4,112 nucleotides of DNA from Escherichia coli. Its GTDB lineage: Bacteria > Pseudomonadota > Gammaproteobacteria > Enterobacterales > Enterobacteriaceae. The stretch lies in the NCBI RefSeq assembly GCF_036507355.1, contig NZ_AP027884.1; one strand, written 5' to 3'. Shown here piece after piece: positions 1 to 4,112 of the stretch. The position numbers and the translations under genes are program-made. Each line of letters opens with the position of its first letter. Position 1 is the first letter of the stretch. Under the pieces are notes generated by a model, which saw only the letters and a list, made by a program, of their open reading frames with translations, had not been told where the DNA came from and ran no database searches.

Positions 1-104
1 TAATGAGAGCAGAGATAGCGCTGATGTCCGGCAGTGCTTTTGCCGTTACGCACCACGCCTTCAGTAGCGTAGCAGGAAGGACATCTGATGGAAATGGAAG
101 CCAC
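1..104 (-). CDS. insA: IS1 InsA, 5' portion (GTG start at 104; frame runs off the window start and resumes at 4112)
   Basis: Reverse-strand translation [34 protein letters not shown] matches the InsA N-terminus (MASVSISCPSCSATDGVV...) including the CxxC zinc-finger cysteines. Confidence 0.85.
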
Positions 105-136
105 GCAAGCACCTTAAAATCACCATTATACACTAA

Positions 137-159
137 ATCAGCAAGTTGGCAGCATTACC
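137..159. repeat. IS1 terminal inverted repeat (IRL)
   Basis: Reverse complement begins GGTAATGCTGCCAACTT, the canonical IS1 terminus. Confidence 0.85.
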
Positions 160-294
160 CGCGAGGTGACCAATCGGGTTCCTCATGGGAATAAAAACTG
201 CTGCAGTTGGCCCAGTGCCACGGAGAATCAGTTAGGCAATGGAAGGGTAATAAATAGAACTGACTGCCCTTATTCACTTGAGGTTTATCGGGAG

Positions 295-317
295 GCCCGC
301 TATTAGCGGGCTTTTCT
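295..317 (+). terminator. Putative rho-independent terminator (GCCCGC-tatta-GCGGGC followed by TTTTCT)
   Basis: 6-bp GC-rich perfect stem, 5-nt loop, T-rich tail on the plus strand; lies between the IS1 end and the 3' end of the convergent Wzz-like gene. Confidence 0.5.
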
Positions 318-369
318 GCATCTGGCGTGTAACGGATGTTGCTAGAATACGGTTATTAATCGTTACAGG

Positions 370-1038
370 CTAATAAAAAGACCTGTTTAACTTATTTTTA
401 TATTCAAGTATAGATCTTTTTATTATATGATACGAGGAGGAAAAGATAACGGCTATAATTAACGTTAGAGCCATAATTAAAGCTGGTTTATACTTTTTAT
501 TCACTATTTCATTATTTATTGAAATGAAGTTTTTTTCTCCGGTGGTGTTTATTTTTGTTAATAATGCAACTTTTGCATATGTTTCAGTGCCATTTATATA
601 GTTGCTGTCCTGGTTGTTAACTATGCTTTTATAAGTTTTATAATCTTGGATGTACCAGTCATCAATAGCTTTATGGATAGCGTTTACTTCAGCGGTAATC
701 AGTGGTTTGTAACGGTCATCACCAGCCCATGACAGGATTATTTTTTTTCCTTTTTCATCTATATTTGATGTTATAGACTTGCTTTTATTGTTTATAATTG
801 ATTGTATGATATTCGCTTTACAATAAAAGTCAGACCCACAGTTAATAATCATACTTGGTGAATTAGCGATCATATTTAATTCGTACTTTATATTTATTTT
901 GTTTTTGTTTATCAGTAAGAAAATAGATGACAAAATCAATGAGAAAACAACAAACAAAATAATACTCACGATTTTTTTCTTAAGAAAGAGAAATAACTCG
1001 ATGAAATCAATATCAGGTGAATTGTTTTCCATTTTCAT
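370..1038 (-). CDS. Short Wzz/Cld-like polysaccharide co-polymerase family protein (222 aa, bitopic membrane protein: N-terminal TM, about 140-aa periplasmic domain, C-terminal TM)
   Basis: A 669-nt ORF in roughly 25% GC DNA, where stop codons are frequent, is very unlikely by chance. The N-terminus MKMENNSPDIDFIELFLFLKKKIVSIILFVV parallels the Wzz motif M..ENN...IDLI(D/E)LL.QLW.GK..II followed by a TM helix. The C-terminus KPALIMALTLIIAVIF plus short basic tail parallels the Wzz C-terminal P-rich/TM segment. Hydrophobic stretches at about residues 23-43 and 186-206. Confidence 0.55.
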   Translation of the reverse strand: MKMENNSPDIDFIELFLFLKKKIVSIILFVVFSLILSSIFLLINKNKINIKYELNMIANSPSMIINCGSDFYCKANIIQSIINNKSKSITSNIDEKGKKIILSWAGDDRYKPLITAEVNAIHKAIDDWYIQDYKTYKSIVNNQDSNYINGTETYAKVALLTKINTTGEKNFISINNEIVNKKYKPALIMALTLIIAVIFSSSYHIIKRSILEYKNKLNRSFY

Positions 1039-1130
1039 ATACCAACAATAGTTATTAAATTATAGCTTAAATAAATAAATAAAATTAAAATAGCCGTGAT
1101 GAATATTTTCGCTGATTTAGTATATTTCAT
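1035..1130 (-). CDS. 31-aa hydrophobic micro-protein (MKYTKSAKIFITAILILFIYLSYNLITIVGI), predicted single TM; stop overlaps the Wzz-like start (ATGA)
   Basis: Hand translation of the minus strand: ATG at complement of 1128..1130; TGA stop shares 2 nt with the ATG of the 370..1038 ORF, the arrangement typical of translational coupling. Below the ORF-track size cutoff. Confidence 0.45.
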   Translation of the reverse strand: MKYTKSAKIFITAILILFIYLSYNLITIVGI

Positions 1131-3284: not shown

Positions 3285-3386
3285 ATGCCGTAAAAACAGA
3301 GCCTGCGCGTTTCTGGCGGGTTTTCGGGTGGTTTGTTGCCTGTTTTACCGGTTTCCCGTCAGAAACGCCCTCAGCGCCTCTCAGGC

Positions 3387-3414
3387 GGTGCACGCAACGG
3401 ATGTTATGGTAAAT
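3387..3414 (+). other. Xer site-specific recombination site (cer/psi-like multimer resolution site): XerC arm GGTGCACGCAA, 6-bp central CGGATG, XerD arm TTATGGTAAAT
   Basis: XerD arm is identical to the cer XerD arm; XerC arm differs from psi (GGTGCGCGCAA) at one position; 11+6+11 layout. About 200 bp of potential accessory sequence lies upstream. Confidence 0.6.
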
Positions 3415-3432: not shown

Positions 3433-3458
3433 CAAAAAAGCCCCGCAGGGCTTTTTTG
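3433..3458. terminator. Bidirectional rho-independent terminator (AAAAAA-GCCC-cgca-GGGC-TTTTTT)
   Basis: Stem flanked by an A-run upstream and a T-run downstream, between the Xer site and the IS1 right end. Confidence 0.6.
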
Positions 3459-3503
3459 CTATGAGTTAGCCATATTTTCGTGCGAATTTTTCATCGGAAT
3501 CGC

Positions 3504-3526
3504 GGTGATGACTCCAACTTACTGAT
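3504..3526. repeat. IS1 terminal inverted repeat (IRR)
   Basis: GGTGATGACTCCAACTTACTGAT, the canonical IS1 terminus. Confidence 0.85.
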
Positions 3527-3914
3527 AGTGTTTTATGTTCAGATAATGCCCGATGACTTTGTCATGCAGCTCCACCGATTTTGAAAACGACAGTGACTTC
3601 CGTCCCAGCCTTGCCAGATGTTGCCTCAGATTCAGGTTATGCCGCTCAATGCGCTGCGTATATCGCTTGCTGATAACGTGCAGTTCTCCCTTCAGGCGTG
3701 ATTCATAAAGCGGCCAGCCATCCGTCATCCATACCACGACCTCAAAGTCCGACAGCAGGCTCAGAAGACGCTCCAGTGTGGCCAGAGTGCGTTCACCGAA
3801 TACGTGCGCCACAACCGTCCTCCGAATCCTGTCATACGCGTAAAACAACCAGCGCTGGCGTGATTTAGCGCCGACGTAACCCCGCTGTTCGTCCATTTCA
3901 GCGCAGACAATCAC
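3519..3914 (-). CDS. insB: IS1 InsB (shown from first in-frame ATG; in IS1 the transposase is the InsAB' fusion made by -1 frameshift at the A6C motif, here complement of about 3959..3967)
   Basis: ORF-track protein [28 protein letters not shown]...HYLNIKHYQ matches IS1 InsB; the TTAAAAAAC slippery motif is present on the minus strand just upstream. Confidence 0.9.
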
Positions 3915-3940
3915 ATCACCGCCCGGTTGTATGCGCTAGG

Positions 3941-4112
3941 TTACCGACTGCGGCCTGAGTTTTTTAAGTGACGTAAAACCGTGTTGAGGCCAACGCCCAT
4001 AATGCGTGCACTGGCGCGACATCCGACGCCATTCATGGCCATATCAATGATTTTCTGGTGCGTACCGGGCTGAGAGGCGGTGTAAGTGAACTGTAGTTGC
4101 CATGTTTTACGG
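3941..4112 (-). CDS. insA: IS1 InsA, 3' portion (stop codon = complement of 3941..3943)
   Basis: The frame continues from the window start; 34 codons + 1 junction codon + 57 codons gives 91 aa plus stop, the InsA length. C-terminal sequence ...[16 protein letters not shown] is followed by TAA. Confidence 0.85.

Follow-up and report, generated by a model that had tools for sequence, protein, structure and literature searches.

The window, which is the whole stretch of DNA analysed (4112 bp), represents a ColE1-type plasmid, circular and complete. It is matched from end to end by the E. coli plasmids NZ_CP080073.1 (4096 bp, 99.6%) and NZ_CP139187.1 (4112 bp, 97.5%), and its RNAI is located by Rfam at 1324-1425 on the minus strand. 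Of 5426 complete E. coli genomes, 21 contain the segment 160-372, which holds the hairpin under study, and it is plasmid-borne every time. A single IS1, exactly 768 bp long and in minus-strand orientation, crosses the linearisation point (3504-4112 plus 1-159); the near-identical plasmid NZ_CP080073.1 carries an IS1 family transposase in its RefSeq annotation. On the plus strand IS1 is followed by the remnant of a small conserved plasmid gene, for which the name orfX is coined here, by the hairpin, by the relic of a Xer site and by a convergent gene for a GNVR-domain protein. The features are as follows.

1-159, minus strand: left part of IS1, which ends with IRL at 159; the direction of insA is toward position 1 and away from the hairpin.
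160-273, plus strand: 3′ remnant of orfX (38 codons), a conserved hypothetical gene of ~94 aa truncated by IS1.
295-311, plus strand: terminator hairpin, stem GCCCGCT/AGCGGGC (7 bp, 6 of them G-C), loop ATT.
312-317, plus strand: T-tail TTTTCT (nT = 3.56), which opens a 10-nt spacer.
322-349, plus strand: decayed XerCD core (xrs relic), CTGGCGTGTAA, with central CGGATG and a degenerate XerD arm, TTGCTAGAATA (4/11).
370-1038, minus strand: gene for a GNVR-domain, YkgH-like membrane protein of 222 aa, its stop 58 nt from the hairpin.
3387-3414, plus strand: intact XerCD site, GGTGCACGCAA CGGATG TTATGGTAAAT, with a cer-like accessory sequence upstream (~3300-3386).
3434-3457 (stem 3440-3451), both strands: symmetric terminator AAAAAA-GCCCCGCAGGGC-TTTTTT, d = 23.9 on the minus strand and 8.3 on the plus strand.
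3504-4112, minus strand: right part of IS1, with IRR from 3504; it joins 1-159 over the circular junction.

On the plus strand the hairpin consists of the halves G295 CCCGCT301 and A305 GCGGGC311, separated by the loop ATT at 302-304. The stem is followed by TTTTCTGCAT (312-321), the 10-nt spacer that leads to the Xer-core relic. The predicted fold of a 41-nt RNA from the plus strand has an energy of -19.4 kcal/mol; its z is -3.7 relative to 200 dinucleotide shuffles, and one shuffle did equally well. This energy counts in G-U and A-U pairs of GGGAG with the U-tail, and the core hairpin 295-311 by itself accounts for -12 to -13 kcal/mol. Both strands of the whole plasmid were scanned with a d'Aubenton-Carafa-type terminator score, in our own implementation. 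The hairpin 295-311(+) reaches d = +15.9 and ranks second among the hairpins of both strands, level with the RNAI terminator at 1348-1333(-) (d = 15.7), a 3′ end that is located independently by Rfam. No site with d >= 0 appeared in 12 dinucleotide-preserving shuffles of the plasmid. A stable GC-rich stem-loop with a U-rich tract immediately 3′ is the anatomy of a Rho-independent terminator, and by this anatomy and its score 295-317 is predicted to be an ordinary, previously unannotated intrinsic terminator, competent for plus-strand RNA.

For RNA of the minus strand, CTCCCGATAAAC comes next after this stem. The tail in that sense, CUCCCGAUAAAC (CTCCCG), contains no U-tract, and the score drops to d = -38. 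The sequence 5′ of the stem in the window is GGGAG, not the A-tract of a bidirectional terminator, and an A-tract at this place is present only in the variants of two relatives, L009 (AAAA) and L021 (AAA). The original prediction had described a plus-strand, intrinsic-terminator-like GC hairpin with a T-tail, lacking a U-tract on the minus strand and placed between IS1 and a convergent gene, and all of this agrees with the sequence, the scores and the coordinates. A built-in consensus terminator scanner missed 295-317, as it also missed the RNAI and 3440-3451 terminators, and the T-tail was likely consumed by its G-T-tolerant stem extension. A search of Rfam at E <= 1 returned only RNAI, with no family over 260-350. 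A second, weaker plus-strand hairpin, at 318-338, is formed by GCAUCUG...CGGAUGU through pairs that include G.U. It overlaps both the relic of the XerC arm and the central region and is conserved in L009, and it probably arises from the partial dyad symmetry within the Xer core.

The convergent gene encodes a protein with a GNVR domain (PF13807, E = 4e-9; 36.6 bits against a cutoff of 27.7). The match to the Wzz N-terminal domain lies below its cutoff (15.4 bits against 25.5), as does that to the NCBIfam WzzB model (17.6 against 267). At 222 aa, with two terminal hydrophobic segments, the protein is much shorter than Wzz, and its nearest named relative is E. coli K-12 YkgH, with about 23% identity over residues 52-215. 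The name Wzz-like, under which the gene was first described, is a loose label. The protein occurs only on small plasmids of Enterobacteriaceae (identity of 74% or more among 97 matches) and has no match in PADLOC. A 31-aa hydrophobic ORF (MKYTKSAKIFITAILILFIYLSYNLITIVGI) at 1035-1130(-), conserved in both the L008 and the L009 lineage, overlaps the GNVR gene at its start through the sequence ATGA. The arrangement suggests a two-gene operon encoding a small membrane peptide and the YkgH-like protein.

Homology of the window to IS-free or differently interrupted relatives begins exactly at position 160, in frame inside orfX. IS1 adjoins the codon for R in ...GD/REVTNR... (the slash marks the junction) and the 5′ part of the gene is lost. 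Judged against these relatives, IS1 has taken away the front of orfX together with whatever promoter drove it. The ancestral stop codon, TAG in L008, has become TAT at 271-273, and the frame continues to a TAG at 304-306 in the hairpin loop, as expected of a decaying pseudogene. The IS1 flanks at 3495-3503 and 160-168 show no 9-bp target duplication (CGGAATCGC versus CGCGAGGTG), which points to IS1-mediated deletion or recombination between plasmids rather than to simple insertion. Within IS1, a TAG at 3938-3936(-) breaks the insB′ frame, and the twin copy is labelled 'frameshifted; internal stop' in RefSeq.

Intact orfX is found in E. coli pYLMB53b (NZ_CP073941.1, L008; 1718-1999, 93 aa), in L009 and in L021, and the L009-type gene occurs in plasmids of Enterobacter, Kluyvera and Leclercia. 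A 2364-bp Salmonella plasmid, CP082446.1, also has the gene intact, and there orfX and its terminator stand between two xrs (plasmid Xer sites). Homologs can be followed to about 40% identity, with an invariant Gly-rich C-terminal tail resembling NWPSTTGNPSGGGRGN. Profile searches with orfX in Pfam, NCBIfam and PADLOC gave no significant match. The AlphaFold model has four helices and a disordered tail (pLDDT 74.6), and a Foldseek comparison of this model with the PDB yielded no match (best E = 4). A consensus scan found no convincing sigma-70 promoter for orfX, and its transcription is assumed because the coding frame is conserved. The idea that orfX is the immunity protein of a nuclease bacteriocin was discarded, the sole hint being an HNH-motif gene upstream in L024. 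The gene is broken at differing positions in L002/L004, L003/L007/L017/L018, L005/L006 and L011. The interrupting elements comprise IS1, two other IS1-family elements (one of them inserted only ~15 nt before the hairpin) as well as ISKpn26, and orfX is either an insertion hotspot or a repeatedly inactivated gene.

In relatives the hairpin is found 21-50 nt past the orfX stop and is co-oriented with the gene. In L008, where no IS1 adjoins it, the same hairpin lies 25 nt after the stop at 1999. A variant hairpin follows intact orfX in L009, and in L021, L022 and L023, which have no GNVR gene, orfX is followed by GCCTGC-GCTCA-GCAGGC and TTTAC. The orfX homolog of L027 has a 3′ hairpin AAAAGCCCGCTA..TAGTGGGCTTTT (stem GCCCGCTA/TAGTGGGC plus TTTT) and that of L036 has CCCCGT-ATTA-ACGGGG plus TTTTT. 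Even L031, L034 and L035, with an orfX about 40% identical, carry GCCCGC-CATT-GCGGGC followed by a run of seven to eight T (T7-8). These variants were gathered from PLSDB and from contigs encoding orfX homologs. The segment 275-372 matches 39 PLSDB records, and the type-A relatives inspected all have the hairpin unchanged (100%). An exact-pattern scan for TTTNCTGCATNTNGCGTNNANCGGATGTT over representative genome contigs gave zero matches, since the representative genomes do not carry these plasmids.

Among 10 distinct types of 3′ hairpin, the score in the orfX sense exceeds the antisense score in seven and is positive in five. In an alignment of seven rows, some of them related, pairing is kept in 93.5% of the cells; controls with slid 3′ partners reach 37-64%. 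Three stem pairs are changed on both sides (C-G to U-A, G-C to A-U) across these seven partly related rows. The stems of L027 and L029 contain G.U wobbles and are paired only in plus-sense RNA. The short T-runs of types B, D and E are mirrored by A-runs, and neither strand scores above zero. The L009 variant (Enterobacter-type) attains full stem pairing only in minus-sense RNA (U.G versus C.A) and has A4/T4 flanks. Such an element may act in both directions, or may even serve the GNVR transcript.

Xer sites of plasmids (xrs) were recognised by the rules of PMC11724359, namely an 11-bp XerC arm, a central region of 6-8 bp and a well-conserved 11-bp XerD arm; NNNGCGNNNAA N6-8 TTATGGTAAAT is an example of the core pattern. 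The site at 3387-3414 agrees with these rules in its arms, its central region and its XerC-side accessory sequence (putative ArgR/PepA binding), and its 28-mer is a plasmid xrs listed in the supplement of PMC11724359. Its flanks have an 'empty-site' configuration relative to L021. The accessory region at 3300-3386 (GGGTGGTTTGTTGCC...) is of the cer type, like the ColE1 and ColA accessory sequences printed in PMC11724359. This region may encode an Rcd-like RNA; Rfam gave no match over 3300-3386.

By consensus alone the core at 322-349 is indistinguishable from background. It is homologous to an intact xrs at the equivalent position in L021 (GTTGCGTACAA-CGGATG-TTATGGTAAAT), L025 (GTAGCGTACAA-CGGATG-TTATGGTAAAT), L027 and L036. 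Decay of the XerD arm is graded across the GNVR-linked lineages, from 8/11 in L009 through 6/11 in L008 to 4/11 in the window. A functional xrs at this place was considered and rejected in favour of a relic, as the XerD arm retains only 4/11 and a scan with the consensus does not recover the site. The distance from the stem to the XerC arm is 10 nt in the window and in L021, L025, L027 and L036.

In L021 two xrs, at 1069 and 1512, stand 443 bp apart as direct repeats around orfX and its terminator. L022 and L036 are likewise doubly flanked, and the spacing of the directly repeated sites in the three plasmids is 443-456 bp. L026 shares the L021 backbone (98.6% identical right of the site) and has a single xrs; L021 (1069-1539) and L026 (~189-260) form a precise pair of occupied and empty sites. 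Relatives therefore show both marks of a Xer-flanked cassette, two xrs and occupied as well as empty forms, and the copy in the window is truncated. The comparison indicates that in intact relatives orfX and its terminator constitute a unit of ~440 bp between two directly repeated Xer sites. The cargo to the right of the second core varies and includes the GNVR gene, a TM2/NINE gene and R-M genes. L025 carries a DUF3800 gene, after which come a near-identical hairpin, a spacer of 10 nt and an intact xrs. A text search of the literature for TTATGGTAAAT returned irrelevant matches only.

Taken together, these comparisons mark the element as older than the IS1 insertion and as the predicted native 3′ terminator of orfX. 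We conclude that 295-317 is probably the Rho-independent terminator of orfX, orphaned when IS1 truncated the gene. In intact relatives orfX would be read on the plus strand and its transcription would end at the hairpin and T-run, with the XerC arm 10 nt past the stem. The terminator would in this way keep orfX transcription out of the Xer core and out of the cargo beyond it. In the present lineage the cargo past the core is the convergent GNVR/YkgH-like gene, and the XerD arm has decayed. IS1 then deleted the 5′ part of orfX along with whatever promoter it had and left the terminator orphaned. By its sequence the orphan is still competent on the plus strand, with no evident plus-strand transcript arriving.

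A broader proposal is put forward only tentatively. Here, orfX and its terminator would represent an undescribed cassette of ~440 bp mobilised by XerCD among ColE1-type plasmids, in which the terminator, at its spacing of 10 nt, would shield both the core and the next module. The copy in the window would then be a decayed one, cut short by IS1 and joined to a YkgH-like cargo gene. If this is true, the repeated independent IS insertions would suggest that orfX is a preferred target or is counter-selected.

It is unlikely that the hairpin is instead primarily a DNA or RNA accessory of the Xer site, acting as a transcription shield or as a structural aid at an xrs that has no accessory sequence. 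The constant spacing from stem to XerC arm would fit such a role, as it is kept in five lineages, among them L036, whose stem is unrelated in sequence, and L025, in which another gene lies upstream. In addition, ColE1 cer as given in the supplement of PMC11724359 has a small hairpin and TTTT 7 nt before the XerC arm. However, the constant spacing may reflect common descent of a single hairpin-xrs unit, and the distant orfX homologs L031-L035 keep the terminator without any xrs. The adjoining core has decayed in the window, where the role would be vestigial, and the explanation overlaps largely with that of a terminator of orfX.

Service to the GNVR gene, as its terminator, as a stabiliser of its 3′ end or as a bidirectional terminator of convergent genes, is quite improbable. 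The hairpin does lie 58 nt downstream of the GNVR stop, no better minus-strand terminator is found in 370-160, and the L009-type stem, fully paired in minus-sense RNA alone, has AAAA/TTTT flanks that would give a U-run on both strands. The hairpin is also intact in many plasmids in which orfX is destroyed, but this retention says nothing either way, as the DNA around it is about 97% identical as well. The minus-sense tail in the window, with its d of -38, speaks against such service, as do plasmids without a GNVR gene in which the hairpin accompanies orfX or the DUF3800 gene. In a third GNVR lineage (L015/L016/L019/L020; 75-77% aa identity) the homology to the window ends at the stop codon and the hairpin is absent, which argues that the hairpin is not the GNVR gene's own. 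GNVR transcripts could meet a stem without a U-tract, where they would undergo RNA polymerase pausing or 3′-end stabilisation at most, or else run onward into orfX′ and IS1. The third lineage has an AT-rich inverted repeat (AATAACATA...TATGTTATT) in place of the GC hairpin and a co-directional ORF of 88-93 aa after the gene (L015/L016 1341-1897; L019/L020 2228-2509). A YoeB/YefM toxin-antitoxin pair lies nearby in L015 and L016.

The original prediction went further than anatomy and read the hairpin as oriented to halt plus-strand RNA from the IS1 side before it runs antisense into the GNVR gene. That it is there for this purpose is very unlikely. The geometry and orientation are suitable, the plus-strand terminator score is high, and RNA exiting through IRL would meet the hairpin 136 nt on. 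However, insA reads the other way, and the P_IRL-like promoter of IS1 (minus strand, 152-125) also points away from the hairpin. A consensus scan of 1-295 found no plus-strand promoter-like site. Any plus-strand approach to IS1 is already preceded by the 3440-3451 terminator, which lies just past the intact Xer site and is conserved (3434-3457) in L021 and L026. Together, the direction of P_IRL, the silent scan and this upstream terminator leave little evident plus-strand transcription to stop. An outward hybrid promoter at the IRL end of IS1 was considered (TTGGCA at 146-151, ACCAAT 17 nt on) and rejected, with only 3/6 in the -10 element and no signal in the scan. The hairpin is moreover identical or compensated in relatives that have no IS1 here and no GNVR gene, where it follows intact orfX; it predates IS1 and was thus not selected for guarding against it. 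The proposed purpose and the supposed transcription from the IS1 side are not supported. Insulation of the GNVR gene from antisense read-through may occur, only as an incidental effect of a hairpin older than IS1, and the blocking of IS1 read-out is a side effect at most. That the hairpin is a functionless chance palindrome is extremely improbable: short GC palindromes do arise by chance, but the shuffled plasmids contained no comparable site, the fold has a z of -3.7, and both the pairing and the position after orfX are conserved down to 40% protein identity.

As an orphaned terminator of orfX, 295-317 would be of little importance in itself, and the surrounding mosaic, as read from comparative evidence, is of more interest. 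What looks like an "IS1 insulator" would be the relic of a truncated gene, a caution against inferring function from present-day neighbours. The succession of terminator, 10 nt and Xer core would define a module boundary in ColE1-type plasmids and may help to explain swaps of cargo in small plasmids, such as that of the YkgH-like gene. Finally, orfX stands out as a conserved, uncharacterised small gene family with its own predicted terminator and as a candidate Xer cassette for study.

Several known systems offer points of comparison. Like the intrinsic terminators of Enterobacteriaceae, for example that of the plasmid's own RNAI, 295-317 has a GC-rich stem of 7 bp, a short loop and four U directly 3′, with an equal score, and its equivalents in relatives lie 20-50 nt after a stop codon. 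It differs from typical intrinsic terminators in that the loop has only 3 nt in the window, the U-tract is short (UUUUCU) and its gene now lacks the 5′ half. Recombination at Xer/cer sites has been proposed in the evolution of ColE1-like plasmids (Tran et al. 2012, as cited in PMC8683028; PMC7399989; PMC6764390). The small cargo of orfX and terminator (~440 bp) between two XerC/XerD cores resembles the pdif/dif modules of Acinetobacter. These modules typically lie between inversely oriented sites. In contrast, the sites that flank orfX are direct repeats, the mobility of the unit is suggested by comparative structure only, and the second core is degenerate in the window. Like ColE1 cer, the element places a short hairpin and TTTT just upstream of a XerC arm. 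In ColE1 this hairpin is presumably the Rcd terminator. Unlike in ColE1 cer, what comes before the 295-317 hairpin is a protein-coding gene and not an ArgR/PepA accessory sequence. A closer counterpart of the cer/Rcd region is found elsewhere on the plasmid, at 3300-3414, which resembles the accessory sequence plus core of ColE1 and ColA as they appear in the supplement of PMC11724359.
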